Source: Acidimicrobiia bacterium
GTDB taxonomy: Bacteria > Actinomycetota > Acidimicrobiia > Spongiisociales > ZC4RG35
Direction: 5' to 3'
NCBI GenBank assembly: GCA_035281645.1
Contig: DATEDN010000172.1
Span: 4,137 to 68,136 of the forward strand
Length of the DNA: 64,000 bases
Part shown: positions 16,387 through 41,810 of the stretch, piece by piece
How the letters are laid out: each line of letters begins with the position of its first letter
Position numbering within the stretch: position 1 is the stretch's first letter
Made by a program: the position numbers and the translations under genes
The notes under the pieces: model-generated
Seen by the model: the letters and a program-made list of their open reading frames with translations, nothing else
What the model was told of the DNA's origin: nothing
The model's database searches: none

Positions 16387-17004
16387 TCATTCTACCGCCG
16401 ACATGTGTTGATCGACTTCCGCGATACAGCGCTCGAGATCGTCGTTGACGACGACAAAGTCGAAAACGCCCTTGGCGTCGGCAATCTCGCCCCGGGCGAT
16501 TAGCAAGCGTCGGGCGATTTCATCCTCAGGGGTGTCGGCGCGGAGACGTAAGCGAGCCTCGAGATCCTCGATGCTCGGCGGGACCACGAAGAACATGATG
16601 GCGTCCGGGTAAGACTCTCTGATCTGGCGAGCCCCTTGCACCTCGATCTCGAGCAACACGTCGGTACCGTGCGCGAGGTTCTCGAGAACGGGCGCACGCA
16701 ACGTGCCGTAACAACGGTCGTTGTATTCGGCCCACTCCAGTAACTCCCCGGCTTCGATCAGCTTGCCGAATTCTTGGGGAGCGACGAACCAATAGTGGAC
16801 GCCATGTTCTTCGCCCGGCCGCGGATCCCGGGTGGTAGCCGAGACCGAGAAGTAGAACTGGCGGCGCCGGCGCAGCCCCTTGACGACGGATGACTTCCCC
16901 GCTCCGGATGGACCGGAGATGACAAAGAGCCGTCCCCGCTTTCTGTCAGCCAACCGTTGCTCAGCCGAGCGTGGCGAGAAGGGCCTTCCGTTGCCGCTCG
17001 CCAA
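16387..17004 (-). CDS. gmk: guanylate kinase
   Basis: P-loop GPSGAGKSS, GMP-binding SVSATTR and EIEVQG motifs. Confidence 0.9.
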   Translation of the reverse strand: MASGNGRPFSPRSAEQRLADRKRGRLFVISGPSGAGKSSVVKGLRRRRQFYFSVSATTRDPRPGEEHGVHYWFVAPQEFGKLIEAGELLEWAEYNDRCYGTLRAPVLENLAHGTDVLLEIEVQGARQIRESYPDAIMFFVVPPSIEDLEARLRLRADTPEDEIARRLLIARGEIADAKGVFDFVVVNDDLERCIAEVDQHMSAVE

Positions 17005-17281
17005 GGCCCCGAATGCGGCGGTTGGGGGCGATCTCGAGCGATTCGAGCAGGCGCTTGGCTCCGATTTTTCCCATTCCGGGCAATGCCTCGAGCAGCGACT
17101 CGACTTTCAGGCCGGCGACATAGTCCTCCGATTCGGCCCGATCGAACACCTCACGCAAAGTCAACGAGCCGGTCTTGAGGAGCTCCTTGATCTCGGCTCT
17201 GATACGTCGCGCCTCGCCCGCCTTGGCCAGAGCCGCGGCCCTTTGCTCGGGAGTGATTTGAGGCGGCTTTGGAGAGGTCAC
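16961..17281 (-). CDS. mihF: integration host factor MihF (actinobacterial mIHF)
   Basis: 106 aa, small basic protein placed upstream of gmk as in mycobacteria and streptomycetes. Confidence 0.75.
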   Translation of the reverse strand: MTSPKPPQITPEQRAAALAKAGEARRIRAEIKELLKTGSLTLREVFDRAESEDYVAGLKVESLLEALPGMGKIGAKRLLESLEIAPNRRIRGLGERQRKALLATLG

Positions 17282-17291
17282 GGTTTCGATG

Positions 17292-18476
17292 CTAACCCTG
17301 GCCGGCGGCGGTCACCTGCCTTACTCGGAGTCGGGAGGATGCCCAAACGGCAACCGTCAGGGCGAGAACGAAGGCCAGATTCGAGAGCCAGTGGAATCCA
17401 AAGCTCTCCTTGACGAAACCGGAGGCAAAAGCGGCACTGCCGCCCAGCACCGACAACACGGCATCTGCCAAACCCTGACTGGCCACTCGATACTCGTCGC
17501 CGCTGGCGGACACCAGCAGGCTTGAACCACCAATCAGTCCAAAGCTCCAACCGAGGCCGAGGAGGAAGAGGCCAGCGAAGATGAGAGCCGGTTGGTATCC
17601 CGCAATCACTGCTGCCACTACTCCGGTACCAAGGATGGCGGCACCGAGCCGGATCGATCGCAACGGCCCGTAGCGGTCGACGATCCTCCCCACAACGGGC
17701 GAGAGGCCGAACATTCCCAGGACATGAACGGCTATCACCGCCCCCGATAGCTCAGCTTGGCCATGGTCGCGCATGTGCAACGGCGTCATCGTCATCACCG
17801 CCACCATCGCCGCCTGGCTGAGGGCAATGGAACCGATTCCGAGCAAGGCCAACGGGCGCGTCCTGATCACTGCCCAGGTGGTGCCGATTGTCGGCCTCGG
17901 CCCCGCATCTGCGATCTCTTTTTTCAGCAAGGTATCGGGCCGGAGCCAGATGGCCACCACCAGGGCGGCCAGCACCAACAGGAGCACCGACACGAGGAGT
18001 GGGGCGGTCCAAGGCCGGAACCCCTGTTCCAGGCCCCAAGTGTTCTCCCAGGAGCCGAGGCTGGGGCCGACAACTCCCCCGAGGGCCCCGACCCAGACCA
18101 CGAGCGAGATGACCCGCCCTCGTTCCTCCGGGGTAGCCAAGTCGGCCGCCGCAAAACGACTCTGGAGGGCGGCTGTCTGACCCGTTCCCACCAGCACCAG
18201 AGCGAAAAGAAAGGGGATGAAGACCCCGCCTTGGCTGAGGAAGAAGCCCAGCACCGCACCCGCAGCGCCCAGCAAATACCCCGCCCACAAGGCCGGGCGG
18301 CGTCCTTTGGCGAGAGCCCTCCTCGCCAGGGGAGCCGCCATCACCGCGGTGCCCAGAGTCAGTGCCGCATTGGGAAGTCCGGCCCATCGATCGGTACCGG
18401 TCAGATCGGCGGCGAGAAGCCCCAGAACCGAGACCATCGTCACATATCCCGCCGAGAAGAGCGCCTGGCTCGTCAT
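17292..18476 (-). CDS. MFS transporter
   Basis: About 12 predicted TM helices with MFS-like loops. Start taken at an internal Met (MTSQALFSAGYV). The track ORF has a 67-codon Arg-rich extension. Confidence 0.7.
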   Translation of the reverse strand: MTSQALFSAGYVTMVSVLGLLAADLTGTDRWAGLPNAALTLGTAVMAAPLARRALAKGRRPALWAGYLLGAAGAVLGFFLSQGGVFIPFLFALVLVGTGQTAALQSRFAAADLATPEERGRVISLVVWVGALGGVVGPSLGSWENTWGLEQGFRPWTAPLLVSVLLLVLAALVVAIWLRPDTLLKKEIADAGPRPTIGTTWAVIRTRPLALLGIGSIALSQAAMVAVMTMTPLHMRDHGQAELSGAVIAVHVLGMFGLSPVVGRIVDRYGPLRSIRLGAAILGTGVVAAVIAGYQPALIFAGLFLLGLGWSFGLIGGSSLLVSASGDEYRVASQGLADAVLSVLGGSAAFASGFVKESFGFHWLSNLAFVLALTVAVWASSRLRVRQVTAAGQG

Positions 18477-18505
18477 CAGGGTGACGAGAACCCTCCGGGG
18501 GACGC

Positions 18506-19504
18506 CTATGGGAGGTTCCAATTCTTCTCGATCTCGGCCAAAGCGACCCGCGCCAGTCGGATTCCGCCCGCGGTCGTGAGATGGATGCCGTCGTTCAAAC
18601 GCATATCGACCAGGTCGCCTTCGTCGTTGATCAGGTACTCGGAGAATCCGCCGTCCGGCCCGGTGAAGACATCCCAACTGCTGATGTAGGTCACCCCAGG
18701 GTGAGCGGCGGCTTCGGACTCATATATCTGATTCATCGTGGCCACCTTCTCACGAAACGAGTCCGAGCGCACGATGGGCATTCCCACCCAGTAAACGTCT
18801 CGATTGTCGGCCACAAGCTCGGCCATCAACTCTCCCACCCGTAGGCGATATTCAGCCATCCATTCAGCAGTCCCGTAGTCGTGCCAGCTGCCATCGATTT
18901 GGATCGCCTGGGCGTCGTTCCCCCCAAAAAAGAGGACGAGCGCATCGGGATCCTGCTCGGCCCCGACCTCACGCAGCCGGGCTGGCCAATCAAGAAAGTC
19001 GGTGCGGGTCAGCCCGGAATCGAACTCATAGACGACTTCGGTGACGTCGATGTACCCGGTGTCTTCGGCCTGGTTCGCCAGCATCGGTCCGAACTGGCCC
19101 ACCATGGAATCTCCCCCGATGAAGAGGCGCAGTGGGTCGGTTGTGGAAATGACTCTCCTTCCCGCAAGGGTCGTGGTCGTCGGTTCGGGGGCGGTGGTCG
19201 TGATGGGCAGAGCAGCCGAAATCGTCGTGGTCGTCGACACCACCGCCTGCTCCCGACCCAGAGCGGTATCGATTGCGTTGTGGGGAGCATCAAGCGAGAA
19301 GAGCCGGGAGATGAAATCGAAAGGCTTGGCCGCCGCCACGGCCAGGTCCCGTTTCCAGCCCGCTTCCTGGCGGCGGGCGGTTTCCATGATGTCGGGCGCA
19401 TTGAGCAATAGGCCCATGAGCAACGCCGCCACCGTGACGAAGATGGCGCTTCCTGCCGGCATCACCGGGCCCTTGCCGATCCAGGAGTCAGGCTCGAGAT
19501 CCAT
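18506..19504 (-). CDS. SGNH/GDSL-family hydrolase-like protein (DUF459/PatB-like), membrane-anchored with a Thr-rich linker
   Basis: N-terminal TM segment, a TTTTISAALPITTTAPEPTTTT linker, and a GDS block (FIGGDSMVGQFG) with later DG/H-type blocks. Sits immediately downstream of an MBOAT gene. Confidence 0.65.
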   Translation of the reverse strand: MDLEPDSWIGKGPVMPAGSAIFVTVAALLMGLLLNAPDIMETARRQEAGWKRDLAVAAAKPFDFISRLFSLDAPHNAIDTALGREQAVVSTTTTISAALPITTTAPEPTTTTLAGRRVISTTDPLRLFIGGDSMVGQFGPMLANQAEDTGYIDVTEVVYEFDSGLTRTDFLDWPARLREVGAEQDPDALVLFFGGNDAQAIQIDGSWHDYGTAEWMAEYRLRVGELMAELVADNRDVYWVGMPIVRSDSFREKVATMNQIYESEAAAHPGVTYISSWDVFTGPDGGFSEYLINDEGDLVDMRLNDGIHLTTAGGIRLARVALAEIEKNWNLP

Positions 19505-20922
19505 CAGAATTGGAAGTAGATGAAGGGCGCCACGCCTTCAGGGCCAAGAGCGTCGAGAACGAGGAGAAAAGCCCCCAGGGCAGCGGCCATCGGGACCGGC
19601 TGCAAGCTCACGAACGAACGCCGCAGGCGCACGCGGAGATCCGATGGCAGGTATTGGGCTCCCAACCCGCCAACGATCAGGATCGCTACCGCGGGAGTGA
19701 TGGCCGCCACTGTCCCGAAAGAGCCAAGGCGCTCGAGGACATCGACCGCGGCTGAAAGCGAGTCCGATCGAAACAAAACCCAGCCGAGACACACAACGTG
19801 GAAAATGATGACCCGCCGGAGGACCCGCCGTGCGAGGCTGTCGACCCGCTCTACACCACGCGCCGCCCGGCGAGAGGCGAGCCACCGCTCGAGGGCGAGG
19901 ACGGCGCCGTGGAGACCCCCCCACAGGACAAATGTCCAGGCGGCGCCGTGCCAGAGACCGCCCAGCAGCATGGTGATCATCAGGTTGCGATAGGTAGCGG
20001 CAGTCCCTTTGTGACTGCCTCCCAGTGGGATGTAGAGGTAGTCGCGGAGAAAGCGCGACAGCGTCATGTGCCAGCGCCGCCAAAAGTCCTGGAGACTGTC
20101 GGCGATATAGGGCCGGTTGAAGTTTTGGGGAAAGCGAAAGCCGAGCAGCAGCGCCAGGCCGATGGCGATATCCGTGTAGCCGGAGAAATCGGCGTAGATC
20201 TGGACCGCATAGCCGTAGATGCCCGCCAGCGTCTCGAGTGACGAGAAGCTCGCAGGCGAGGCAAACACCGGGTCGACCAGCGTGGTGGCAAGGGTGTTGG
20301 CTACCACCACTTTTTTGAACAAGCCACCGGCGATGAGGAGGAACCCAGCCCCGGCGGCGACCCGTCGGGGATCGTGTCGCTCCCGGAGTTGGGGCAAGAA
20401 CTCGGCGCTGCGGACGATGGGTCCGGCCACGAGATGAGGAAAGAACGAGACGAAGGCGGCGAAATCGAGGAGCGGAACCGGTTCCAGCTTTCCTCGGTAG
20501 ATGTCAATCGTGTAACTGAGCGATTGGAAGGTGAAAAAAGAAATCCCCACCGGAAGGATGATGTTGAGGATCGGTAGCGGGAGGTCGATTCCCAGAGGAG
20601 CGGTGAGATTGATCAGCGAACTAACGAAGAAGTCGTAGTACTTGAAGTACCCGAGCACTCCCAAGCTGACGATCAATCCAAGAATCAGGAGCCGCTTTCG
20701 AACCGCCGGGTCGGAGCGGCGATAGATCAGCCCGCCGATGGTGTGGTCTGCAACGGTTGTGAATGCCAAGAGGAAACAGAACCGCCAGTCCCAGGAGCCA
20801 TAGAAGAAGTAACTGGCGGTGAGAATGAAAACCTTCCACCGGCGCGGATGCGGTAAGAGCAACCAGCTCGCGGTCAAAACGACCGCGAAGAACAAGGCAA
20901 ATTCGATCGTGGGGAAAATCAC
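19504..20922 (-). CDS. MBOAT-family membrane-bound O-acyltransferase (AlgI/DltB/PatA-like)
   Basis: 472-aa polytopic membrane protein with MBOAT hallmarks (FWRRWHMTLSRFLRDYLYIPLGG...LWHG). The conserved His is present. Confidence 0.8.
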   Translation of the reverse strand: MIFPTIEFALFFAVVLTASWLLLPHPRRWKVFILTASYFFYGSWDWRFCFLLAFTTVADHTIGGLIYRRSDPAVRKRLLILGLIVSLGVLGYFKYYDFFVSSLINLTAPLGIDLPLPILNIILPVGISFFTFQSLSYTIDIYRGKLEPVPLLDFAAFVSFFPHLVAGPIVRSAEFLPQLRERHDPRRVAAGAGFLLIAGGLFKKVVVANTLATTLVDPVFASPASFSSLETLAGIYGYAVQIYADFSGYTDIAIGLALLLGFRFPQNFNRPYIADSLQDFWRRWHMTLSRFLRDYLYIPLGGSHKGTAATYRNLMITMLLGGLWHGAAWTFVLWGGLHGAVLALERWLASRRAARGVERVDSLARRVLRRVIIFHVVCLGWVLFRSDSLSAAVDVLERLGSFGTVAAITPAVAILIVGGLGAQYLPSDLRVRLRRSFVSLQPVPMAAALGAFLLVLDALGPEGVAPFIYFQF

Positions 20923-20933
20923 GGGATCGGACC

Positions 20934-22610
20934 ATGGTACGGCCGACTACTACCGTTGCCACAGTCGTCATGCCCTCCCCTACTCAGGTTTCCCGTGCGC
21001 GTCCTCAGCTTCGTTCTCGTCGCGCGCGCAAGCGTCGTGTGACTCGCCGCGGGTGGATCGTTTTCATATTGCTGGGCCTGGCGGCGGCCGCCGCCGTGAT
21101 CATCCCCCTGATGCAGCGTCCCGTGGTCGGCCTGACTGGGGTGGATAACGACCAGGTAATCACCGCGGCAGAGCTCCCGCTTTCGCTTTCTCTGACGGTT
21201 GATCGTGAAGTTGAGAGCATCGCCGCTTACCTCGACCACGAAGAGATACCGATCCAGCGATCTTCGGGTGGAGCCTCGATTGCCATCGACCGTCTCGAGG
21301 ATGGGCCGCATGTGATTTCGATCGTGGTTGATCGGGGCTCACTCGTACCACCTGTCTCAACCGAGAGACGATTCCGCGTCGATACCGAGGCCCCCGTAAT
21401 CACGGTTATGAGCCCATCGGCCCCGGTGGCCCCGCTCGGCCCAGTGGAGTTGAGGGTGACGACAGACGATCCAGGTTCGATGGTGACGATTGCCGGCAGT
21501 GAAGTCCTTGCTTCCACTGATGGCTCCTTCGCCATCGAGTTTCCCAATCCACCCGAGTCACCAATCGCGGTGCAGGCCCGAGACATGGTCGGAAACTCGG
21601 CCACCACCGAAGTCGCATTCCAGCTCGACCTCCCCGGCAACCCCGGCAGCGACCGCATTCGAGGGGTGCATGCTTCCGGATACACCTGGTCGAGTCCCGC
21701 CCTCAAAGATCCGATCATGGCAATGATCGCTTCCGGTCAGATCAACACCGTCGAGATCGATCTCAAAGACGAGGCCGGGAAGATCTGGTGGGCAACTTCG
21801 GTCCCTCTCGCCTCGGAAATCGGGGCGATCGAAGAACTGTGGAATCTGGGCGAGGTCGTGCGCGAGCTGCACGCGCTCGGGGTGCGGGTCATCGGACGCC
21901 TGGTGGTCTTCCGCGACCCCATCCTCGCTGGTTGGGCGGTGGCGCAGGGAAACACCGACTGGATTGTCCAAAACCCCGATGGCACTCCCTACGGTCAGTA
22001 CGGGGGTTACACAAATCCTTTCAGCCCCGAGGTGTGGGAATACAACATCGCCATCGGCGAAGAAGCAGCGCGGCTCGGGGTCGACGACATTCTCTATGAC
22101 TACGTGCGCCGCCCCGATGCCTTCATGGATCGGCTGCGTTTTCCTCTGCAAGGAGACAAAAGTCCCGAAGACGCCATCGTCGGATTTCTGGAAGCGAGTC
22201 AGCCCCGGATTCACAGCGCCGGCGCCCGGCTGGGAGCTTCGGTTTTCGGAATCGCCGCCACACATCCCGATCAGATCGCCCAGCCGATTCCCCGCATCGC
22301 CGAGACGGTCGACTATGTCGCTCCCATGGTGTACCCCTCGCACTGGGGTCCCAACGAATACGGCGTCGTCCACCCCAATGCCAGCCCTTATGACATCGTC
22401 TTCAGATCCCTCTCTGAGTTTCAGCGTCAGGTGGAGGGGACGGAGGCGACCGTCCTCGGCTGGTTACAGGACTTCTCCCTGGGAATCGAATACGGCCCCG
22501 CCGAGGTCAGGGCCCAGATCGAAGCCGCGGCCGATGCTGGGGTCCTCGACTTTCTCCTCTGGGACGCGGCGGCGACCTATACCTCCGATGCCCTCGATGT
22601 GATTCCCTGA
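20934..22610 (+). CDS. membrane-anchored putative glycoside hydrolase (DUF4015/YngK-like TIM barrel) with an Ig-like N-terminal region
   Basis: TM helix (WIVFILLGLAAAAAVIIPL), a beta-rich region, and a block matching the DUF4015 pattern (IRGVHASGYTW...VVFRDP...DDILYDYVRRP...PMVYPSHW...GWLQDF...LLWDAA). The true start may be the internal Met at about 20970. Confidence 0.65.
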   Translation: MVRPTTTVATVVMPSPTQVSRARPQLRSRRARKRRVTRRGWIVFILLGLAAAAAVIIPLMQRPVVGLTGVDNDQVITAAELPLSLSLTVDREVESIAAYLDHEEIPIQRSSGGASIAIDRLEDGPHVISIVVDRGSLVPPVSTERRFRVDTEAPVITVMSPSAPVAPLGPVELRVTTDDPGSMVTIAGSEVLASTDGSFAIEFPNPPESPIAVQARDMVGNSATTEVAFQLDLPGNPGSDRIRGVHASGYTWSSPALKDPIMAMIASGQINTVEIDLKDEAGKIWWATSVPLASEIGAIEELWNLGEVVRELHALGVRVIGRLVVFRDPILAGWAVAQGNTDWIVQNPDGTPYGQYGGYTNPFSPEVWEYNIAIGEEAARLGVDDILYDYVRRPDAFMDRLRFPLQGDKSPEDAIVGFLEASQPRIHSAGARLGASVFGIAATHPDQIAQPIPRIAETVDYVAPMVYPSHWGPNEYGVVHPNASPYDIVFRSLSEFQRQVEGTEATVLGWLQDFSLGIEYGPAEVRAQIEAAADAGVLDFLLWDAAATYTSDALDVIP

Positions 22611-22630
22611 CCTGGAATTCGTGCTGGGGG

Positions 22631-23326
22631 CTACGTCTTTGCGGCAAGAACCCGGGAGAACTCGGCTGCTGCTTCCTTCGGATCCGAGGCGCGGGTTATG
22701 GGTCGACCGACCACGATGATGTCGGCGCCTTTCGCCGCCGCCTCGTGGGCACTCCCGCTCTGGCGCTGATCGTCGGTACTTCCATTGTTGCGAATCCCAG
22801 GCGTGACCTTGGTTAGATGCGGTGCCACCTGAGCGACGACGCCCAGTTGCTTGACCCCGCAAACCACTCCTTCGCAACCTGCCTCTTGCCCCAGGCGAGT
22901 CATCCGAGCCACCTGCTCGCCCAATGAGCCTCGAAATCCGGTCTGAGCGAAAGTTGCATCGTCCATGCTCGTCAAGACCGTAATTGCCAGCACTCCCGCC
23001 AAATTGCCAGCTGCCCCATCCTCGAGGCCGGCGGCTGCCGCCTCCAGCATCGATCTACCACCGGCAGCGTGGGCGGTGATGTAGCGAGCACCGAGTCGGC
23101 CCAGCTGGCGAGCGGCGCCGCGGACCGTGTTGGGTATATCAAAGAGCTTGGCGTCGGCGAAGACGGGTCGGCCGACCTGGCGGATGGCAGCGATCGTCGC
23201 CGGGCCCGGGCCCAGCAGCAGCTCGAGGCCCACTTTGAAGCCGTCGACATGCGGTGCTAGGTCATTTGCCGACCGTACGGCCTTCTCAGCCGAATCGAAG
23301 TCAAGAGCAACAAAGAGCTGAGTCAT
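22631..23326 (-). CDS. pyrF: orotidine 5'-phosphate decarboxylase
   Basis: C-terminal 231 aa of the track ORF (MTQLFVALDFDSAEKA...) is OMP decarboxylase. The upstream 220 codons overlap pyrD out of frame and are rejected. Confidence 0.85.
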   Translation of the reverse strand: MTQLFVALDFDSAEKAVRSANDLAPHVDGFKVGLELLLGPGPATIAAIRQVGRPVFADAKLFDIPNTVRGAARQLGRLGARYITAHAAGGRSMLEAAAAGLEDGAAGNLAGVLAITVLTSMDDATFAQTGFRGSLGEQVARMTRLGQEAGCEGVVCGVKQLGVVAQVAPHLTKVTPGIRNNGSTDDQRQSGSAHEAAAKGADIIVVGRPITRASDPKEAAAEFSRVLAAKT

Positions 23327-24228
23327 CCCATCGTGTCGATCAACGAGGCCACTGAAGGAACTCGGTGCTTGGTCATCCAGGAGATCAATTCGTCGAGTAA
23401 GCGGCGTCCGGCTCGAGGCTCGGCCATATGGATTGTCCCCGCTGCCACCGCTTGCGCCCCGGCAATCAGGTATTCGGCGATGTCGGTGCCGGTGGTGACG
23501 CCGCCACAACCGACGATCGGTACTTGCGGCAGGGCCCTTCGCACCTCGATGACGAAGCGGAGAGCGATCGGCTTCAAGGGCGGCCCCGAGTAGCCACCCA
23601 CGACCCCGCTGAGCTTGGGCTTTCGGGAGTCGAGGTCGATTCCCGCCCCCCAGATGGTGTTGGTCAAGGTAAGGAATGTCGCGCCCGCCTCCGCGCACGT
23701 TGCTGCTACCGGAACCGGGTCGATCAAGTTCGGTGAGAGCTTCGCCCCCACCGGAAGCGACACCGCCCCGACGACCGCGGCGATTACGTTGGCCGATGCT
23801 TCGGGATCGAGGGAGAACATCTGCCCGTCGAGGTTGGGGCAAGAAAGGTTGACCTCGATCGCGGTCAACCCGCTGGCCTCGAGACCCTTGGCGACCAAGG
23901 CAAACTCCTCCGCTGTGTGCCCCACCGCCGAGCCCCAGACCGGGACATCCAGGTCCACCAGCCGGGACCCGATTTCGGTTCTCCACGCCTCGATCCCAGG
24001 GTTCTGAATCCCGATTCCATTGAGCATGCCGACCCCGGCCGGTGCCAGGCGGGGAGCAGGTCGGCCGCTCCAGGGTTCGCCGCTAACCGATTTCGCCACC
24101 GCCGCTCCGTAAGCCGTCAGGTCCGCCAAGCCCGAAAGCTCGATCACCGAGCCCACTGTCCCCGATGCCGCGATCAATGGCGAGCGCAGCCGAAGCGGCC
24201 CCAGCCTGGTGGTCAGATCAGGCGTCAC
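23323..24228 (-). CDS. pyrD: dihydroorotate dehydrogenase catalytic subunit (class 1-like)
   Basis: 301 aa with DHOD motifs (LSCPN, GGVTTGTD). Starts on GTG. A GGGAG sits 7 nt upstream. Confidence 0.88.
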   Translation of the reverse strand: MTPDLTTRLGPLRLRSPLIAASGTVGSVIELSGLADLTAYGAAVAKSVSGEPWSGRPAPRLAPAGVGMLNGIGIQNPGIEAWRTEIGSRLVDLDVPVWGSAVGHTAEEFALVAKGLEASGLTAIEVNLSCPNLDGQMFSLDPEASANVIAAVVGAVSLPVGAKLSPNLIDPVPVAATCAEAGATFLTLTNTIWGAGIDLDSRKPKLSGVVGGYSGPPLKPIALRFVIEVRRALPQVPIVGCGGVTTGTDIAEYLIAGAQAVAAGTIHMAEPRAGRRLLDELISWMTKHRVPSVASLIDTMG

Positions 24229-33410: not shown

Positions 33411-36400
33411 TCACTCGCCCAGGATCACCCTCGCCACATGCCGCTGACCATCGTCGGTGAGGCCAATCTCGGAGTCCGGCGGCTGTTCGACCTCGTCGAG
33501 CCACAAGCTCTTTATTCCCCGCGTCGCCCCCTCCGGGTTCTCGACCCGGATCTCATATTGCGAGGAGTGGTAACGAAAGTTGATCTCGAAGCCCCGCCAC
33601 GCTCGGGGAATGCAGGGATCGATCCGGAGGCTTTGGCCCCGAAGGCGAAAGCCCAGAATCGACTCGACACCCGCCCGATACATCCAGCCTGCCGCCCCCG
33701 TGTACCAGGTCCATCCACCCCTCCCCACGTGCGGTGCTTCTGAGTAGATGTCGGCGGCCGCTACGTAAGGCTCAACTCGATAGCGATGGACGCCGGCTCG
33801 AGTGCTGGAGTGGTTTATCGGGTTCAAGATTCCGAACAGCTCACCGGCCCGATCGCCCTGGCCGAGAGTGGCGAAAGCGATGATGGCCCAGATGGCGGCA
33901 TGCGTGTACTGGCCGCCATTCTCCCGAATCCCAGACAGGTATCCCTTGATGTACCCAGGGTCGACATTCCAGCGATCGAAGGGAGGCGTGAAAAGAAGCA
34001 CCAAGCCGTCACCTCGCCTGACCAAGTACTCCTCCACTGCCGACATCGCCCGTTCGGCTCGCTCCGGCTGGCCACCCCCGTGCATGACCGACCAGGACTG
34101 GGCGATGGAGTCGATCCGGCACTCGGGATTCGCCGAAGACCCGAGCGGAGTTCCGTCGTCGAAGAAAGCCCGCAGATACCAGTCACCGTCCCAGGCCACC
34201 GCCTCCAATTGGCTCCTCATCTGCTCCGCCGAGCGCCTCCAACTCAAAGCCACTCGGCTCTTTCCGACCAAGTCAGCCAGCTCGGCAAAGCGGCGCAGGT
34301 TGGCATCGAGAAACCACCCCAACCAGACGCTTTCTCCCCGCCCTTCGATTCCTACCCGATTGAAGCCATCGTTCCAATCTCCCGAGCCGATCAGAGGCAG
34401 GCCATTGGGTCCGAGGCGCTGGCGAGCGCGGTCGAGGGCGCGCCGGCAATGATCGAACATCGTCCCTGTGCGAAAAGAGACCTCGGGCGTGAAGTAAGCC
34501 TCGTCCTCGTCGGGTTTTAGCTCCGGCCCAATGAGATAGGGAACCTCCTCCGCCAGCAGGTCGACGTCTCCTGTCACCTCGATGTAGTGCCCGACCGCAT
34601 AGGGCAGCCAGAGATAGTCATCGGAAATGCGGGTCCGCACACCCTTCCCTGACGGCTCGTGCCACCAATGCTGGACGTCGCCTTCTTCAAACTGGCGGCT
34701 CGCGGCGCGGAGGAGGTGAGCCCGTGTGGTCTCCCTCATCGGCACTGCGAGGGCCATCACGTCTTGCAGTTGATCCCGGAAACCGTACGCCCCGCCGGCT
34801 TGGTAGAAGGCCGATCGTCCCAGAACTCGACACGCCATGGCCTGATACAGGAGCCACTGGTTGATCATGATGTCGAAGGAGCGATCCGGGGTTCTCACCT
34901 GGAGGGCACCGAGAACGTCGCTCCACCGGGTCCTTACCGCCTCGCCAACCTCGTCTTGGGGGACGGATCGATATTGCTCGACCAAGGCCGATGCATGGGC
35001 CGCGTTCTCGCCTTGTCCGATCAGGAAGACGACCTCGATTTCGTCGCCGGGAGGGATGACGACCTGTCGTTGTAGAACCGCGCACGGATCGAACCCGGTG
35101 CCGGATCGACCTGAAAGACCACGTCGACGCTCGAGGGCAGCAGGGCGCTCGAGGCTACCGTGTCGCCCGAGAAACTCGGTGCGGTCGGTGGTCCAGGCGC
35201 CGACCTCCGCCCCAAAGTCGGCGAACGCCACCCGCGACCCGAAGTCTGCGTTCCAGGGGTTGCGAGCTATAAGAGCGCCGGTGCTGGTATCGCGCTCGCT
35301 AAAGATGTGGAACCGTTGGCCGACTCGGGTGGGCCCCAGCACCCATTCGACATAAGCGGTCAAGGTCAACCGTCGGCGGCGCCCGCTTTGATTTTGGAGA
35401 CGAAGCGTCGAGATCTTCACCGGGTCATCGAGAGGCACGGTCATTCGCAAGCGGCTGCGGATGCCGAAAGAGATGTGGTCGAACTCGGAGAACCCAGGTC
35501 CGTGGCGGACGACGTAGGTGGAGCCATGGTGGCGGATCGGGAGGGCAGTTGACCCCCACAGCTCACCGGTGTCGTCATCACGGATGTAGATGGTCTCGCC
35601 TGGCGGGTCGGATACCGGATCGTTCGACCAGGGCGTCAGCTGATTCTCCCGGCTGTTGCCGGCCCAGGTGAATCCCGCGCCCGATTCGGAGATGACAAAG
35701 CCGGCATTGTCGTTCGCGATCACGTTGATCCAGGGAGCCGGAGTCCACTGACCCTCGCCGAGAATCACGACGTATTCGGAAGCTCCCTCGGAAAACCCGC
35801 CGAGGCCGTTGCGAAACTCGAGGTCAATCCGGGGTTGTGGTCCTCCCGGTGATGGCGTTGGCGGGGTTTTGCGTCTCGAGGGCGCGGGAGCCGGAGGCCG
35901 GGGGCGGCGGGCGAGTTGGTCGGCCAACGTCCCGTGGTGGCTCAACACGATCGCGCGAGCGGTCGCCTGTAACAGGTTGCGGTCCGCGGCATCGAGAAGG
36001 TCGCCGCGGAAGAGGAAGACCCCCCCGTCGGGCTCGGGGCCGATGCCCCGCCCGGTGGTTCGCACCACTTCTTCGATCGTGGCATGGAGATCGGCCACAT
36101 AGGACCCGGGCTTCTCGTTGATGATCACGAGGTCTGCAGCCAGTCCTTTGGCCCGCCAGTATTCCTGGGCTCGGAGTAAGTCGCGGACGATCCCCCTGTC
36201 CTCGGGTTGATCGATTCGGAGCAGGACCACGGGAAGATCTCCCGAGATGCTGTGGCGCCAGAGCGCCGGCTGGCCACCGGTGGCCGCCGCCAGCGTTGCA
36301 GAAGGTGCGCGCATCGACGGGTCGACGTAGATCAGCCGCTGGGCGAGTTGTTGGAAAAGGTGAGCCTGTTCCGGCGTGACGCCGAGATGGTGCAATCGGA

Positions 36401-39400
36401 CCTGGGCCTGGGTCCAGGACCCCGTCAAACTCTGTTCGAACGCCCCCGGATCCGAGAACTTGTCGACCAGATCGAGCGCCTTCGCCCGGGAGGTCGCCAC
36501 CACGGTGCTGAAGCTGAGGTGAACGGTTTCCCCCGGTGGCACCCTGACCCGACGTCGCAAACTCAAGACCGGGTCAAGCACGCGTCCCACCGAGTTCGAC
36601 AGCGGACGATCGAGGGCGGCGGCCTCGTGGATCCGCCGTCCCCGGCCCAGAAAGCGAGCCCGGTCGGTCTCGAATTGAAGACCGCCTACAACTTCACCTT
36701 TGATCGCCACTACCTGGCCCGCCCAATAGGTTTCGTCACCAGCCGCTCGTGGTCGGCGATGGGCCAGGAGGGCGTCGTGGCCACCCACCGCCTCGGTTTG
36801 CACGAATAGGTTGGAAAAGGCGGGATGGGAGTCATCCGAGGACTGCGGTGCCAGCACCAATTCGGCATAAGAGGTGACTTCGATCTCCCGGGATGCGTTG
36901 TCGAGGTTGGTAAGGGTGAGGCGGCGAACCTCTACCTCATCTTCGGCCGAGACCACCACCTCGACAGTCGATCGCAGCGTTCCGTCACGCCGGCTGATCT
37001 CAGCCTTTCCCTCGGAGAATTGGACCTGATACGACTGGGGATTGACCCGGGTGGGCTGATAACCCGCCGACCAGATCGTGTCGCTGAGGTCATCACGGAT
37101 GAAAAGGAACGTGCCGTAGTTGTCAAGAGTCAGGTCCTCTCGCCAGCGCGTCACCGCCACACCGCCGAGCTTGCTGTATCCCGAGCCACTGTCGGTGATC
37201 ATCACCGAGTAGCGACCGTTCGAGAGCAGATGCGTCTCCGGTATCGCTCCCGTTGGCAGCCCGAGGTGTCGAACCGCGCCCTCGGCCTCCGTCCGCGGGT
37301 GAGCGGCCAGTGCCACCTCCTCGGCCCGCGGTCGAGCGACTTCGACGTCGCGAGGCACTCGCTCGTGCAGCAACAACTCGGCAGCCCGAACCGCCGGATC
37401 CGTGTGAAAGAGTTGGCGAATGACGCCACCGAAAACGACGTTGGCCAAGGCGATGATCGACATCGCTTGGTGATGTCCCATGTAGGCCTTCACGGTCACC
37501 CATTCCTCGTCTTCGGGGACTCGCGACGGGGTGAAGTCCACGGACTCGTAGAACCCATAGCGACCGAGCGCCCCCATGGTCGCCAGCCGCTCGAGATTCT
37601 GCAGCGCTCGACGAGGATCGATCATCGCCGCCAGCATCGACGCGTAGGGAGCTACCACCAGGTCCTCCGAGAGTCCGCGCTCGAAGCCCAGGCCGGGCAC
37701 TCCAAAGGCCGAATATTGATAGGTGAGCTGGAGGTCGCGAGCGGCAAATGCCGATTCGGAGATCCCCCAGGGGACACCTCGCTCCCGACCGTATTCGATT
37801 TGACGCCGCACCACGGCCCGGTAGGTCATGTCGAGCACGCTGTCGGTTGGTGAGTCCATTACCAAGAGCGGCATCAGGTACTCGAACATGGAGCCCGACC
37901 AAGAAATCAGGGCAGCATCCGCGCCAACCGGAGTCATCGAACGATTGAGGAGAAACCAGTGCGACGGAGGAAGGTCACCTTTGGCGATTCCGATAAAGCT
38001 GGCTAATCGAGCCTCCGAGGCGAGGAGGTCGTAATGGCTTTGATCGAGTGCTCCGTCGCTCAGCCGATAACCAACCGAAAGCAACTTGTTCTGCCGGTCC
38101 ATCAGGAACCCGAAGTCCATTCCGGTGGCCATCTCTACGGCCCAAGCCGAAATCGAATGCAGTCGCGTCCCAATCTCTTCATCGCTGACGTCTTGATCGA
38201 GCTCGTGGCTGTCGACGAGCCTCTGGAGCGCCATCGCCCATTCCAAAAGCTCTCCCGTCTCGGTTCCTGCCGCCAGGGTCTGGACGATGTCAACGAGGTT
38301 GTCGGCGGCTGCGGCCAGGGTGACTAGCCGATCGCTCTCTGACTGGCTTGCCGCCAGGAGGTCGATCAGGGCCTGGTCGAGATCACGGGGGGAGACGAAC
38401 TCGGTGTCGAGGCGATCGACCATTTGATCGGCGGTCTGGCGGATCAGAAGGGCGAGGTCACGGACTCCAAGGGCCAGCTCCGAGGGGCGCCCGACGAGGC
38501 GCAAGCACCCCTGGGAGAGAGCTAATAGATGTCCGGCCAAATTGCCGGAATCAACCGAGGAGATGTAACGAGGATTTAGTGGCTCGAGGGTGCGGGTGTC
38601 GTACCAGTTGAGGAGATGGCCTCCGTAGCGCTCGAGGCGGAACATGCCGGCCATCGTCTGCTCCCACCGGGTGATGGCCTCGACGGTGCCGATCCAGCCG
38701 AATTCCCTCGCCGCCAACACCGACAGGAGATAAAGGCCCAGGTTGGTGGGCGAGGTCCGATGAGCGATCGCCGCCGGCTCCTCCTGGAAATTGTCTGGCG
38801 GCAGATAGTTGTCGTCAGCTGTCACGAAGCGCTCGAAGTAGCTCCAAGTTTTCCGGGCGAGCAACCGGAATGCCTCCACCTCGGATACCTCGAGTGGTGC
38901 CGTCGGGGCGGGCCGCCTGGTCTTGCTCGCCTCATAGGCCAAATATGGAGCAGCCACCCAGGCCGCGGCCAGCGGTGCCGCCACCCAAAGCGCCACGGGC
39001 TTGACCAAGGCCGCGGCCGCAATGGCCGCCAGTCCCAGAAGCGCCGGCGGGGCCATCCGCTTTTGGAATTCGGCGAGTTCAAGACCAAAACGACGCTCAG
39101 CCTCTTCCGAGGTCATCCAGCGGAGCAGATGTCGTTTCGAGACCAGCATCCGCCAAAGGGTGGTGAGAATCGCATCCGCCATCACGAGCGCCTGATAGGC
39201 CAGGAACGAAATCTGGAGTCCGATCCGACCGAGAACCCGACCGGTATCTTCCAACCAGCGCTGGAATCTGATCGCTCCCGGCGTGGTGGTTCGGCGTGGG
39301 ACCAATCGTTCGAGCAGGGGAAGCATGGCCGGGAAGGCCAATGCGGCGATAACGAGAATGAGCGGTGACCAGAGCGGAACGGCGGGTATGACGCAGGCGG

Positions 39401-41810
39401 CCAACAGGAGGGCAAACGACGCCGGCCCGTTCAGACTGCGGCGCAGATTGTCGATCATCTTCAGGCGAGCGACGGCATCGAGGGCCCCTCTTCTTCCGAG
39501 GATCCAGGGCAGAAGTTGCCAGTCGCCCCTGACCCACCGATGCTGGCGCTGGATCGCCACTTCGTAGTGACTGGGAAACTCCTCGAAGACCTCGACGTTG
39601 GTGACCAGACCGGCGCGGGCGAAGCTGCCCTCGAAGAGGTCGTGTGAGAGCAATGCGTTATCCGGCACCCTCCCGGCCAGGGACGCCTCGAAGGCATCGA
39701 TGTCATAGATGCCCTTCCCGGCGTAGGAGCCCTCGGAGAAGAGGTCCTGGTAAACGTCACTCACCGCTGCTGCATAGGGATCGACCCCGGCTGGTGGTGA
39801 AAATGCTTGTTGATAGAAGGAGGTGCTCTCCGTACTGAGAAAGGGCGTCACCCTGGGCTGCAGGACCCCGTAACCATCTGTTACCCGTCCCAGGCCGGGT
39901 GAGAAAACCGGCTGATTGAGGGGATGGGCGATGGTGGCCACGAGCCGGGTCGCAGCTGCGGGGGGCAAACGAGAGTCAGCGTCGAGGGTGATGACGTAAC
40001 GAACTCCTTCCGGGGGCACCGTCTCGGGCAAGAACGAGGTGTCGGTCGCCCCGCGCAACAAGCGATTGAGCTCGTGGAGTTTTCCTCGTTTTCTCTCCCA
40101 GCCCATGTGTTGACCCTCACTGGGGTTGAAAAGCCGGTGACGCTGGAAGAGATGAAAGCGAGGTTCATCTGGCAGCGGGTGCCGCTCGTTGAGGCGGGCA
40201 ATCCCCGCCTCGGCCAAAGTGAAAAGCTCATTGTCGGAAGCGTCGTCGGCGTTCTCGGAGTCGCGGTAGTCGGAGACGAGCGCAAAACGGAACTCGCCCT
40301 CGGGATTGGCCAGGTAATGAACCTCAAGCCGGTCAACGAGCTCGTCGACCTGGCCAGCCCGAGTCAGCATTACCGGGATGGCCACCATGGTCTTCGATTC
40401 GGCATCGGGGCCTACGGCCAGATCGAGCGCTGGGAGCATCCCCGGTCGAACGAAGCCGGTAACAAGTCGATTGACGACACTGACTGCTAGGTCGGTGGCC
40501 GGGAAGAAGCCGATGAGGCCGACCAACAAGGCCAGCCAAGCTCCTCCCGCCTCGAGCGTTCTGACTAATGGAACTGCCAGGAAAACCAGGGCCAGCGAAA
40601 GGATCGACCCCCAGTAGACCGCCGCTGCTGATCGCTTGAGGCCGCGGCGAAGATGTTGCGTCCACGATGGCCGAAAGTCGATGGCGGATTCCAGTTCCGG
40701 GCGGCCCCGGTCTAACAAGAAGAATCCGGGATCCGCCTCCCGGCTCCGGCGCGGGCGTTGACGAGCGAGATCCGACGCCGTGCGGGCGATCTCAAGCTGG
40801 GTGTGATGCGAGCCTTTTGAAAGCTCCTCGACCACGTGGCGATAGAGATCGCGAGTGGCAAAGCTCATGCTTTTGAAGGCGGTGCCCTCCGAGAAGGTAG
40901 CGTCGACCAGGCTGACCCTTTCGACGAATTCGGACCACTCGAAGGATGAGATCTGGCGAAGGCTGGTGACGACGTTGCGCACGGTCACATTTGTCGCCGC
41001 CTGCCGCTGCTGGGCTTCGGTGACAAGCTCGTCGGGGCTTTGGCCCAGCCCGGCGAGATAGTCGAGCAGCCAGCTCAATCCAGCCGTGGTCTCCGGATCA
41101 CGGTCGCGCAGCCGCTGCAGCAGCTGGACGGCCATCGCTCGTGGAATTCGTTCCATCCTGCCCAGCTGCCGGAGGCCATCCTCGGGAAAGCGCCCACCGA
41201 CCTCGAGGAGAGAATCGGCAATCTGATCGGCTACCCGGCGCTGCCCCCTTGCCCGGATAATGATCTCTGCGAGCCGTCGCAGGTTCTCGATCATCACCAG
41301 GCGGATGGCGATTGGCATCGCCCAAAGCTCGCCGATGGTGAGAGGCTCTTCCTCCTGAAATGCGGCAATGAAGCGCTCGAGGGTTTCCGCCTCGAAGCGG
41401 CTGTCGTGATGGGCTACATACGCCCATGCGATCTCGTAGATGCGTGGATAGCCGGCCAGATGGCCGTTCTCAACCTTTGGAAGTTCGCGGTAGTAAGAAG
41501 CGGGCAGGGTCTTGCGCACCGCTGCCAGCTGCGCTTCGACCAGGTGGAAGTTATCCACCAGCCATTCCGCCGCGGGGGTGAGCATGCTCTCCTCGCGAAT
41601 TGCCTGGGCGAGCTCCCGATAGGCAGCGAGGAGAACGTGGCCGTTTTCCGTCAGTCGCCTCGAGATCAGGCGGAACCTTCCTGGCGCCGCGCTCAGCTCC
41701 TGGGTCTTGGCGAGGCTACGGGCATGCTCTTCCAGCCTCTCGACGCTGAATAGCTCCGCACGGATCGGTTCTCCGGCCGGCCCGGCCGGCGATTCCCATG
41801 GCCAGCGCAC
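33411..41810 (-). CDS. cyclic beta-1,2-glucan synthase-like protein (NdvB/ChvB/Cgs family), 2799 aa with a GT84 glycosyltransferase and a C-terminal GH94 phosphorylase-like domain
   Basis: Size matches Cgs (about 2830-2870 aa). First TM cluster lies about 400 aa in. GT84 hallmarks are present (ITLDADS DxD, GWERKRGKL, HRWVRGDWQ). More TM segments follow. The C-terminal roughly 1200 aa carry GH94 motifs (GYLSGIRENGGQYTHAAIW, WLGWFL). Confidence 0.8.
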   Translation of the reverse strand: MRWPWESPAGPAGEPIRAELFSVERLEEHARSLAKTQELSAAPGRFRLISRRLTENGHVLLAAYRELAQAIREESMLTPAAEWLVDNFHLVEAQLAAVRKTLPASYYRELPKVENGHLAGYPRIYEIAWAYVAHHDSRFEAETLERFIAAFQEEEPLTIGELWAMPIAIRLVMIENLRRLAEIIIRARGQRRVADQIADSLLEVGGRFPEDGLRQLGRMERIPRAMAVQLLQRLRDRDPETTAGLSWLLDYLAGLGQSPDELVTEAQQRQAATNVTVRNVVTSLRQISSFEWSEFVERVSLVDATFSEGTAFKSMSFATRDLYRHVVEELSKGSHHTQLEIARTASDLARQRPRRSREADPGFFLLDRGRPELESAIDFRPSWTQHLRRGLKRSAAAVYWGSILSLALVFLAVPLVRTLEAGGAWLALLVGLIGFFPATDLAVSVVNRLVTGFVRPGMLPALDLAVGPDAESKTMVAIPVMLTRAGQVDELVDRLEVHYLANPEGEFRFALVSDYRDSENADDASDNELFTLAEAGIARLNERHPLPDEPRFHLFQRHRLFNPSEGQHMGWERKRGKLHELNRLLRGATDTSFLPETVPPEGVRYVITLDADSRLPPAAATRLVATIAHPLNQPVFSPGLGRVTDGYGVLQPRVTPFLSTESTSFYQQAFSPPAGVDPYAAAVSDVYQDLFSEGSYAGKGIYDIDAFEASLAGRVPDNALLSHDLFEGSFARAGLVTNVEVFEEFPSHYEVAIQRQHRWVRGDWQLLPWILGRRGALDAVARLKMIDNLRRSLNGPASFALLLAACVIPAVPLWSPLILVIAALAFPAMLPLLERLVPRRTTTPGAIRFQRWLEDTGRVLGRIGLQISFLAYQALVMADAILTTLWRMLVSKRHLLRWMTSEEAERRFGLELAEFQKRMAPPALLGLAAIAAAALVKPVALWVAAPLAAAWVAAPYLAYEASKTRRPAPTAPLEVSEVEAFRLLARKTWSYFERFVTADDNYLPPDNFQEEPAAIAHRTSPTNLGLYLLSVLAAREFGWIGTVEAITRWEQTMAGMFRLERYGGHLLNWYDTRTLEPLNPRYISSVDSGNLAGHLLALSQGCLRLVGRPSELALGVRDLALLIRQTADQMVDRLDTEFVSPRDLDQALIDLLAASQSESDRLVTLAAAADNLVDIVQTLAAGTETGELLEWAMALQRLVDSHELDQDVSDEEIGTRLHSISAWAVEMATGMDFGFLMDRQNKLLSVGYRLSDGALDQSHYDLLASEARLASFIGIAKGDLPPSHWFLLNRSMTPVGADAALISWSGSMFEYLMPLLVMDSPTDSVLDMTYRAVVRRQIEYGRERGVPWGISESAFAARDLQLTYQYSAFGVPGLGFERGLSEDLVVAPYASMLAAMIDPRRALQNLERLATMGALGRYGFYESVDFTPSRVPEDEEWVTVKAYMGHHQAMSIIALANVVFGGVIRQLFHTDPAVRAAELLLHERVPRDVEVARPRAEEVALAAHPRTEAEGAVRHLGLPTGAIPETHLLSNGRYSVMITDSGSGYSKLGGVAVTRWREDLTLDNYGTFLFIRDDLSDTIWSAGYQPTRVNPQSYQVQFSEGKAEISRRDGTLRSTVEVVVSAEDEVEVRRLTLTNLDNASREIEVTSYAELVLAPQSSDDSHPAFSNLFVQTEAVGGHDALLAHRRPRAAGDETYWAGQVVAIKGEVVGGLQFETDRARFLGRGRRIHEAAALDRPLSNSVGRVLDPVLSLRRRVRVPPGETVHLSFSTVVATSRAKALDLVDKFSDPGAFEQSLTGSWTQAQVRLHHLGVTPEQAHLFQQLAQRLIYVDPSMRAPSATLAAATGGQPALWRHSISGDLPVVLLRIDQPEDRGIVRDLLRAQEYWRAKGLAADLVIINEKPGSYVADLHATIEEVVRTTGRGIGPEPDGGVFLFRGDLLDAADRNLLQATARAIVLSHHGTLADQLARRPRPPAPAPSRRKTPPTPSPGGPQPRIDLEFRNGLGGFSEGASEYVVILGEGQWTPAPWINVIANDNAGFVISESGAGFTWAGNSRENQLTPWSNDPVSDPPGETIYIRDDDTGELWGSTALPIRHHGSTYVVRHGPGFSEFDHISFGIRSRLRMTVPLDDPVKISTLRLQNQSGRRRRLTLTAYVEWVLGPTRVGQRFHIFSERDTSTGALIARNPWNADFGSRVAFADFGAEVGAWTTDRTEFLGRHGSLERPAALERRRGLSGRSGTGFDPCAVLQRQVVIPPGDEIEVVFLIGQGENAAHASALVEQYRSVPQDEVGEAVRTRWSDVLGALQVRTPDRSFDIMINQWLLYQAMACRVLGRSAFYQAGGAYGFRDQLQDVMALAVPMRETTRAHLLRAASRQFEEGDVQHWWHEPSGKGVRTRISDDYLWLPYAVGHYIEVTGDVDLLAEEVPYLIGPELKPDEDEAYFTPEVSFRTGTMFDHCRRALDRARQRLGPNGLPLIGSGDWNDGFNRVGIEGRGESVWLGWFLDANLRRFAELADLVGKSRVALSWRRSAEQMRSQLEAVAWDGDWYLRAFFDDGTPLGSSANPECRIDSIAQSWSVMHGGGQPERAERAMSAVEEYLVRRGDGLVLLFTPPFDRWNVDPGYIKGYLSGIRENGGQYTHAAIWAIIAFATLGQGDRAGELFGILNPINHSSTRAGVHRYRVEPYVAAADIYSEAPHVGRGGWTWYTGAAGWMYRAGVESILGFRLRGQSLRIDPCIPRAWRGFEINFRYHSSQYEIRVENPEGATRGIKSLWLDEVEQPPDSEIGLTDDGQRHVARVILGE

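Follow-up and report, generated by a model that had tools for sequence, protein, structure and literature searches.

Gene organization and conservation of the locus

The window analyzed in this study is a stretch of 64,000 nt from the genome of an uncultured soil bacterium of the Acidimicrobiia (assembly GCA_035281645.1, contig DATEDN010000172.1, positions 4,137 to 68,136), and its subject is a compact locus between mihF and pyrF, in which a putative two-component O-acylation system lies next to a predicted glycan-cleaving enzyme. Three genes are encoded on the minus strand: an MBOAT O-acyltransferase resembling PatA (19504-20922; 472 aa, GTG start), a DUF459 SGNH O-acetyltransferase resembling PatB (18506-19504; 332 aa), and an MFS_1 transporter (17292-18476; 394 aa from the ATG at 18476). 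The fourth gene is divergent (20934-22610, plus strand; 558 aa) and encodes a membrane-anchored DUF4015 protein with two Ig-like domains and a TIM barrel. The same four genes had been proposed by a first-pass annotation read from the sequence without database searches. All of the open reading frames (ORFs) were found where it had placed them and the Pfam and NCBIfam assignments agree with it; MBOAT (E-value 1.5e-32), DUF459, DUF4015 and MFS_1 were each assigned by Pfam.

One nucleotide is shared between the stop codon of the MBOAT gene and the start codon of the SGNH gene (TGATG, read from the sequence), in line with the overlap stated in the first-pass annotation. The SGNH gene ends with a TAG at 18508-18506, and the first canonical start after it is the ATG at 18476, 29 nt further on. 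The MFS gene was therefore delimited as 17292-18476 and not as the full ORF, which reaches 18677. With the longest ORFs, the GTG of the MBOAT gene at 20922 and the ATG of the DUF4015 gene at 20934 are separated by 11 bp, as had been described. An in-frame ATG at 20970 (Met13, giving a 546-aa product) together with the typical length of homologs, mostly about 543 aa, suggests that the DUF4015 gene may start there and that the true gap may be 47 bp, corresponding to a divergent control region at 20923-20969. Among relatives, 12 to 446 bp lie between the aligned parts of the MBOAT and DUF4015 genes.

A total of 61 actinobacterial loci were obtained from relatives on long contigs and from a GTDB scan by DUF459 motifs, and phmmer was used to look for the four proteins in each of them. 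Two strict peptide patterns defined the GTDB scan, so that it samples one subfamily. All relatives compared are metagenome-assembled genomes (MAGs), and the structures of the window proteins are AlphaFold predictions. The nearest relatives all come from MAGs of Acidimicrobiia; L010 (isolate SMAG_U8528) ranks first, with 97% identity over the SGNH protein. The MBOAT and DUF459 genes are adjacent in all 48 distinct loci. In 38 of these, at least 2 kb of sequence is available upstream of the MBOAT gene, and a DUF4015 gene adjoins the pair in 37 of the 38; the sole exception with enough flank, L057, has a pyruvate phosphate dikinase gene upstream. Since the loci were selected on DUF459 alone, the association with DUF4015 is independent of the choice of loci, and the adjacency of DUF4015, MBOAT and DUF459 is far beyond chance. 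The conservation of neighborhood proposed as a check in the first-pass annotation was thus found for these three genes, hereafter the trio.

At least four unrelated neighborhoods, and two orientations, are seen for the trio within Acidimicrobiia and Nitriliruptoria. It is located between pyrF and mihF in the window and in L001, L003-5, L010-21 and L024, next to GT4 and Wzy_C genes in L002/L036, between an integrase-like gene and an aminotransferase gene in L006-8, and between a thiolase gene and a Zn-ribbon/peptidase gene in L009/L045. The DUF4015 gene is divergent from the pair in Acidimicrobiia (34 loci), whereas in Nitriliruptoria (Egicoccus and Nitriliruptorales; L049, L050, L052, L054 and L055) it lies upstream on the same strand and forms a three-gene string (L049, 4833-9002). 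The first-pass annotation had regarded the cassette as an insertion in a variable slot. The trio does occupy other places in other Acidimicrobiia, but it is a stable resident of the slot between pyrF and mihF down to about 62% protein identity and does not look like a recent arrival there. A literature search on the PE/PPE genes that the first-pass annotation named for this slot in M. tuberculosis returned nothing of use. In L033 (4900-10162, trio plus MFS) and L055 (6538-7949), on MAG contigs of MFD-labelled isolates, the genes are split over several reading frames, which is probably due to assembly indel errors rather than pseudogenisation.

The acyltransferase pair

The MBOAT protein matches the Pfam MBOAT family with 113.7 bits and carries the catalytic-His motif GGLWHGAAW. 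Its C-terminal hexapeptide FIYFQF (codons at 19507-19524, minus strand; read from the sequence), directly followed by the stop codon, conforms to the FXYXXF acyl-shuttle motif. Both FIYFQF and GGLWHGAA are invariant in 53 of 53 actinobacterial MBOAT homologs. The FXYXXF motif is present in PatA, and auto-acetylation of its Tyr has been described (bioRxiv 10.1101/2024.09.17.613324).

References for PatA were gathered by a metagenome scan with two PatB catalytic domains, which gave 80 Gram-negative patAB loci. Wherever these loci extend far enough, an MBOAT gene immediately precedes patB, and its product ends in FIYANF, FIYSNF or the like; neither a DUF4015 nor an MFS homolog was found in the 80 loci. 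The window MBOAT aligns with their MBOATs over residues 5-472 at 220 to 287 bits. With the Neisseria-type PatA, represented by the MBOAT encoded upstream of a PatB 95% identical to that of N. gonorrhoeae, it shares 35% identity (246 bits, residues 5-472), and its GGLWHGAA aligns with GIWHG. Against DltB structures the score is 111 bits and confined to the core (residues 122-354), and against HHAT, a lipid transferase of eukaryotes, it is 34 bits; these pairwise comparisons covered PatA, DltB and HHAT. By these scores the protein groups with polymer-acylating enzymes, and the grouping with lipid-remodelling enzymes, which the first-pass annotation had named as evidence that would count against its proposal, was not seen. 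The protein also falls below the cut-off of the NCBIfam DltB equivalog (185.8 bits against 375), no DltA, DltC or DltX gene was found in the cassette from its ORFs and Pfam matches, and the partner is DUF459 and not of the DltD type.

The SGNH protein matches Pfam DUF459 (PF04311) with 197.2 bits (E-value 2.5e-58, cut-off 27.2), covering 195 of 197 profile positions. An N-terminal transmembrane helix (residues about 17-34) is followed by a conserved juxtamembrane region, a Thr-rich linker (85-112) and the SGNH domain (about 124-330). This arrangement of a transmembrane helix, a linker of about 80 residues and an SGNH domain is the layout described for PatB of C. jejuni (CjPatB). The solved structures nearest in sequence are C. 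jejuni PatB, N. gonorrhoeae PatB (NgPatB) and Cj0610c (DUF459), with E-values from 1e-17 to 1e-12. A Foldseek search with the predicted model (predicted local distance difference test, pLDDT, 77) returned PatB or Cj0610c as all of its top five matches, with template modeling (TM) scores of 0.78 to 0.83, root-mean-square deviations (rmsd) of 2.4 to 2.6 Å and E-values of about 1e-14. The next family is platelet-activating factor acetylhydrolase (E-value 8e-8), leaving a gap of seven orders of magnitude. The match to the Pfam SGNH (AT3-fused) model is weak (E-value 1.6e-6).

The predicted nucleophile Ser133 is found in Block I (GGDS; codon at 19106-19108, minus strand) and aligns with Ser133 of NgPatB and Ser138 of CjPatB. 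Block V, D305-G-I-H308 (codons at 18581-18592, minus strand), contributes the catalytic Asp and His as well as Ile307. Residues G131-D132-S133 of Block I, G194-x-N196-D197 of Block III and D305-G-x-H308 of Block V are invariant in an alignment of 11 actinobacterial homologs with both PatB catalytic domains, and also in a 16-sequence alignment. Ser133, Asp305, His308 and Asn196 align with Ser133, Asp302, His305 and Asn196 of NgPatB, respectively, and the Block V motif DGIH is identical between the two. The Ser/His/Asp triad, whose loss the first-pass annotation had held to be decisive against an acylation module, is therefore retained throughout the homologs.

PatB proteins differ from SGNH esterases in a Block II without the usual Gly (KQST/KQNT), in a hydrophobic wall (Leu250 and Ile304 in NgPatB) and in two wing-like beta-hairpins (bioRxiv 10.1101/2024.09.17.613324). 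Counterparts of all three were found in the window protein. As judged by alignment only, its Block II reads E-F-(D/S/E)-S-G-L against K-Q-(S/N)-T-G-L in PatB, with the usual Gly replaced, and Phe250 and Ile307 take the positions of the wall residues. The predicted structure displays two beta-hairpins (200-209 and 290-300) that match the wings of PatB.

DUF459 is a large family, with 4,732 clusters at 50% identity for an E-value of 1e-3 or lower and 466 for 1e-30 or lower. One member of the representative library, P0361 (780 aa, 541 bits), contains three tandem DUF459 domains. A Rosetta-stone fusion of DUF459 with MBOAT or DUF4015 was looked for in ten long representatives, which held DUF459 domains only.

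The pair thus shares with the PatA/PatB systems of Neisseria and Campylobacter an FXYXXF-tailed MBOAT with a catalytic His, encoded directly upstream of a DUF459 SGNH protein with a single transmembrane pass, and an SGNH domain with the triad, the Block III Asn, a Block II without Gly, the hydrophobic wall and the two hairpins. The module is PatA/PatB-like, differing by its monoderm actinobacterial host, its sequence distance, the lack of a second SGNH gene and its almost obligatory DUF4015 partner. The third gene of the known clusters is Ape1 according to the literature; Ape1 itself was not searched for, but from its ORFs and Pfam matches the cassette has no second SGNH gene that could stand in for it.

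The order MBOAT, FXYXXF Tyr and extracytoplasmic SGNH-like transferase is also common to AlgI/AlgJ/AlgF/AlgX, WssH/WssI, CcsH/CcsI, PatA1/PatB1 of Bacillus and DltB/DltD/DltX. Unlike in these systems, the partner here belongs to DUF459 and not to the AlgX/AlgJ, DHHW or DltD type, and unlike in Dlt, the shuttle motif is fused to the MBOAT. OatA, an AT3-SGNH fusion and the peptidoglycan O-acetyltransferase known from Gram-positive bacteria, has the same presumed end result and the same relay from a Tyr-ester to a Ser-ester; however, the membrane part of the present system is an MBOAT, unrelated to AT3, and two polypeptides take the place of the fusion.

The DUF4015 protein

The DUF4015 protein matches PF13200 over residues 244-549 with 295.5 bits (E-value 5.5e-88) and covers the entire profile (1-313 of 313). 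Its AlphaFold model (pLDDT 85, predicted TM score 0.75) bears out the membrane-anchored Ig-like plus TIM-barrel architecture expected from the first pass. An Arg-rich cytoplasmic tail precedes a transmembrane anchor at residues 38-60 (21045-21113, plus strand; model helix, sequence RSRRARKRRVTRRGWIVFILLGLAAAAAVIIPLM). Two tandem beta-sandwich domains of Ig-like type follow at residues 65-230 (21126-21623, plus strand; from the model strands), and the (beta/alpha)8 barrel occupies residues 243-553 (21660-22592, plus strand), as delimited by the model, the alignment and Foldseek. With the predicted topology, the barrel would be extracellular.

The Ig-like region shows a weak profile match to the adhesin Ig-like region 4m03 (E-value 0.005), and some homologs match Big_13 or BiPBP_C. 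In the family-wide alignment, these domains are missing from the Nitriliruptoria and Firmicutes versions; the Nitriliruptoria proteins have Pro/Glu/Asp-rich tails in place of the two domains. The members from Clostridia and Bacteroidia (P0274-P0307 and P0316) are about 375 aa long with hydrophobic, signal-peptide-like N-termini, several of them with a Cys at the position expected for a lipobox. An alignment of members from Acidimicrobiia, Egicoccus, Clostridia and Bacteroidia reveals the invariant barrel residues D276, K278, R322, D328, D389-Y390, R392, Y467, H470, D513 and W543.

The only solved relative by sequence is 4s1a, an uncharacterized DUF4015 fragment of C. thermocellum, which is also the top match in the PDB. 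The matches of low rmsd that follow in Foldseek are Cwp19 (5oq2; TM score 0.63, rmsd 4.6 Å) and the C-terminal domains of PgaB/BpsB (4p7o and 6au1; TM scores 0.61 and 0.56). Many others are multi-domain alignments with rmsd of 14 to 23 Å. The C-terminal domain of PgaB is a glycoside hydrolase for deacetylated poly-N-acetylglucosamine (PNAG). Cwp19 of C. difficile, a GHL10 protein, was experimentally shown to be a peptidoglycan lytic transglycosylase (PMC6016235), and its active site comprises Asp196-Tyr197, Arg132 and Tyr297 (PMC5765458).

Cwp19 is the best characterized structural match, sharing with the DUF4015 protein an extracytoplasmic (beta/alpha)8 barrel of a glycoside hydrolase-like clan. 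On the model strands, D389-Y390 lies after beta4, R322 on beta3 and Y467 after beta6, and by secondary-structure register, not superposition, these residues would correspond to Asp196-Tyr197, Arg132 and Tyr297 of Cwp19. By the same register, D513 after beta7 takes the place of Glu607 in PgaB, whereas Cwp19 has a Gly there. Cwp19 (GHL10/DUF187) further differs in its Pfam family, in its anchoring by CWB2 repeats instead of a transmembrane helix plus Ig-like domains, and in not being linked to acetylation genes. The C-terminal domain of PgaB/BpsB (GH153/GHL13) is also a TIM barrel with acidic residues after beta4 and beta7 and is encoded with machinery that modifies its own polymer; unlike it, the DUF4015 protein is without sequence similarity, CE4 deacetylase domain or nearby synthase of the pgaC/pgaD type.

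The window protein does not match GHL10 (PF02638) even at E-values up to 10 and matches only GHL6 (E-value 0.039). Several relatives from Clostridia and Bacteroidia do match GHL10 at 27 to 28.5 bits (cut-off 27.9; about 1e-6) and also GHL6, which suggests that DUF4015, GHL10 and GHL6 form one superfamily. A total of 1,618 and 1,849 DUF4015 proteins were retrieved with two different queries. Fusion of DUF4015 to a YkyA domain has been reported, the same partner being found with cell-wall polysaccharide deacetylases (PMC12700454). Apart from this mention in passing, the literature search returned nothing for COG1306 or PF13200. Two clostridial and Bacteroidial contexts (L062 and L063) contain no MBOAT or SGNH neighbors, so the linkage to acetylation appears specific to the actinobacterial clade.

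Proposed function, alternatives and flanking genes

We propose that the trio represents a conserved extracytoplasmic module for glycan O-acetylation and cleavage of the PatA/PatB type, a reading to which we assign an even chance. The two-component module with a glycan-remodelling TIM barrel, as put forward in the first-pass annotation, is supported by the motifs, the PatA/PatB similarity and the linkage. From its motifs, the MBOAT protein would pick up its acyl group on the cytoplasmic side, most probably acetyl donated by acetyl-CoA, and its conserved His would esterify the Tyr of its own FIYFQF tail. From the tail, the group would pass to Ser133 of the membrane-anchored SGNH protein of PatB type, and from there to a hydroxyl on a glycan of the cell envelope. 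As acceptor, the C6 hydroxyl of N-acetylmuramic acid (MurNAc) in peptidoglycan is the most probable, with about an even chance. The linkage and the fold suggest that the DUF4015 barrel binds or cleaves the same polymer, cleavage being in the manner of Cwp19/GHL10 or of the PgaB C-terminal domain, with access governed by its state of O-acetylation. DUF4015 would thereby stand in the genomic place of the esterase Ape1 in the Gram-negative patA-patB-ape1 clusters, and the MFS protein would be an add-on of the lineage with the pyrF-mihF context.

The first-pass annotation had left the substrate among peptidoglycan, exopolysaccharide and a cyclic glucan, and the choice can now be narrowed. Peptidoglycan is favored because the SGNH protein is of the PatB type and not of the AlgJ/X, DltD or DHHW type, and because the sole characterized DUF459 activity acts on peptidoglycan. 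It is also the most probable acceptor because no synthase travels with the trio, because DUF4015 is common across several phyla as an extracytoplasmic enzyme on its own, and because Cwp19, the nearest characterized structural neighbor of DUF4015, cleaves peptidoglycan. O-acetylation at C6 of MurNAc blocks lytic transglycosylases and many muramidases, so acetylation machinery together with a glycan-cleaving enzyme would make a coherent control unit like PatA-PatB-Ape1. Going further, we tentatively suggest, as a possibility well short of an even chance, that DUF4015 is a new family of peptidoglycan strand-cleaving enzymes (muramidase or lytic transglycosylase), gated by coupled O-acetylation of the PatA/PatB type in monoderm Actinomycetota. 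The trio would then be a three-gene "acetylate and cut" unit that replaces the PatA-PatB-Ape1 logic.

Several observations weigh against this proposal. With PatB, the SGNH protein shares no more than 22-25% identity, and it scores 56.4 bits against the NCBIfam PatB equivalog NF045704, below its cut-off of 580. It is accordingly seen as a distant member of the PatB family, not a strict ortholog, and its acceptor specificity could differ. The likeness of DUF4015 to Cwp19 and PgaB is moderate (TM score about 0.6) and common to many TIM-barrel glycosidases, and a sequence-level link to either was sought by profile and single-sequence searches of the PDB, which gave 4s1a only. Given the acidic D513, the chemistry may be hydrolytic rather than lytic. 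As far as the sequence goes, the acyl group may be acetyl or another. In a 2022 review, DUF459/PatB is confined to Gram-negative bacteria and OatA is the Gram-positive route, so peptidoglycan O-acetylation by a PatA/PatB route in a monoderm would be unprecedented. The GT4/Wzy_C context of L002/L036, the only one of its kind, hints at a polymer other than peptidoglycan.

Part of this evidence points to the main alternative, less likely than the peptidoglycan reading but the strongest of its rivals, in which the same relay acylates an exopolysaccharide or a secondary cell-wall glycopolymer, e.g. one rich in N-acetylglucosamine and PNAG-like. DUF4015 would then be a dedicated hydrolase comparable to the PgaB C-terminal domain, PelA, BcsZ or AlgL of exopolysaccharide operons. 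The barrel resembles the GH153 domain of PgaB/BpsB about as well as Cwp19 and keeps, as PgaB does, an acidic residue after beta7. The other characterized Gram-positive MBOAT-SGNH pairs in the literature all modify polymers other than peptidoglycan (secondary cell-wall polysaccharide and cellulose), and the large shortfall of the SGNH protein from the PatB equivalog cut-off leaves room for such an acceptor. Past the trio in L002/L036 (9065-16960; OZ244213.1, a complete chromosome from Acidimicrobiia) lie genes for a double GT4 protein of 754 aa and for a protein of 845 aa that combines Wzy_C with a glycosyltransferase, as well as further GT4 genes. However, in the other contexts examined gene by gene, no synthase or glycosyltransferase is linked to the trio and the neighbors are housekeeping genes, which suits a polymer made by housekeeping genes elsewhere. 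The PatB-type SGNH domain with its hairpins is not of the AlgJ/X or DHHW type known from exopolysaccharide and secondary cell-wall systems, and the lone secreted or lipoprotein-like DUF4015 proteins of Clostridia and Bacteroidia suit a universal envelope glycan.

It is less likely still that all four genes act as one unit, with the MFS protein moving a substrate or product, e.g. importing the glycan fragments released by DUF4015 in the way that AmpG imports the products of lytic transglycosylases. The MFS gene is on the same strand as the SGNH gene and starts 29 nt past its stop, abuts or overlaps it in relatives (by 4 nt in L003), and is kept in every locus of the pyrF-mihF lineage with room for it, down to about 62% identity. 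On the other hand, it is absent where the trio lies elsewhere, as it does in most loci of Acidimicrobiia and every one of Nitriliruptoria; pyrF and MFS are found together in 12 loci, and no locus has MFS outside that slot. The protein is a clear member of MFS_1 (Pfam E-values 1.1e-35 to 5.6e-37) but has no relative in the PDB and no specific NCBIfam family. Its candidacy as an AmpG-like muropeptide permease was not supported, since BLASTP against E. coli AmpG gave no similarity (E-value 0.07). The MFS gene is thus a lineage-specific accessory or bystander and not part of the core, and of the four-gene cassette described at first the DUF4015/MBOAT/DUF459 trio is what is conserved.

Very improbable is the notion that the SGNH protein is an Ape1-like de-O-acetylase, as most SGNH proteins are esterases and PatB itself was first annotated as the esterase Ape2, or that the substrates of the MBOAT are lipids or proteins and the adjacency is meaningless, given the transferase-type Block II and wall residues, the overlap of the SGNH start with the stop of an MBOAT bearing an acyl-shuttle tail, the full-length homology of that MBOAT to PatA with only 34 bits to HHAT, and the adjacency of the pair in every one of the distinct loci.

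So far the PatA/PatB route has been regarded as Gram-negative, OatA being the counterpart in Gram-positive bacteria, and our literature search on PatAB in Actinobacteria returned nothing beyond two reviews. This view would be broadened by the conserved PatA/PatB-like pair of two actinomycetotal classes, and if the "acetylate and cut" proposal is true, Gram-positive bacteria do not rely on OatA alone. For DUF4015, a large group of secreted TIM-barrel proteins without assigned function, the near-obligatory linkage to an O-acetylation pair in these lineages is, within the literature searched, the first concrete and testable clue to the substrate. If the target is peptidoglycan, the trio would offer a compact model for the control of autolysins by O-acetylation.

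The flanking genes mihF and pyrF do not belong to the module. On the MFS side, mihF (actino_IHF; 16961-17281, minus strand; NF041260, 123 bits) starts 10 nt after the MFS stop, and the MBOAT, SGNH, MFS, mihF and gmk genes form one co-directional string (16387-20922, minus strand) with gaps of -1, 29, 10 and -44 nt. The housekeeping genes mihF and gmk may thus be co-transcribed with the cassette. A scan of 16800-23400 detected no sigma-70-like promoter, and the eight terminator-like hairpins in the same interval differ from the mean of shuffled sequences (5.2, standard deviation 2.6) by no more than about one standard deviation. Farther away, at 33411-41810 on the minus strand, a 2799-aa ORF with GH94 supersandwich and catalytic domains and a Glycoamylase domain resembles a cyclic beta-1,2-glucan synthase, an unusual find in an Acidimicrobiia genome. 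Since about 11 kb separate this gene from the cassette and the trio turns up again in unrelated contexts, the cyclic glucan considered in the first-pass annotation is not needed to explain the trio.

On the other side, pyrF (OMPdecase; 22631-23335, minus strand; Pfam and NCBIfam) is convergent with the DUF4015 gene, their stops being 20 bp apart, and is preceded upstream by pyrD and carB (Pfam and NCBIfam). The pyrD gene (dihydroorotate dehydrogenase) is of the class-1 type and lies between carB and pyrF; pyrF and pyrD together span 22631-24228 (minus strand) and overlap by 13 nt at 23323-23335 when the longest ORFs are taken. A 451-aa ORF at 22631-23986 represents pyrF over-extended into pyrD.

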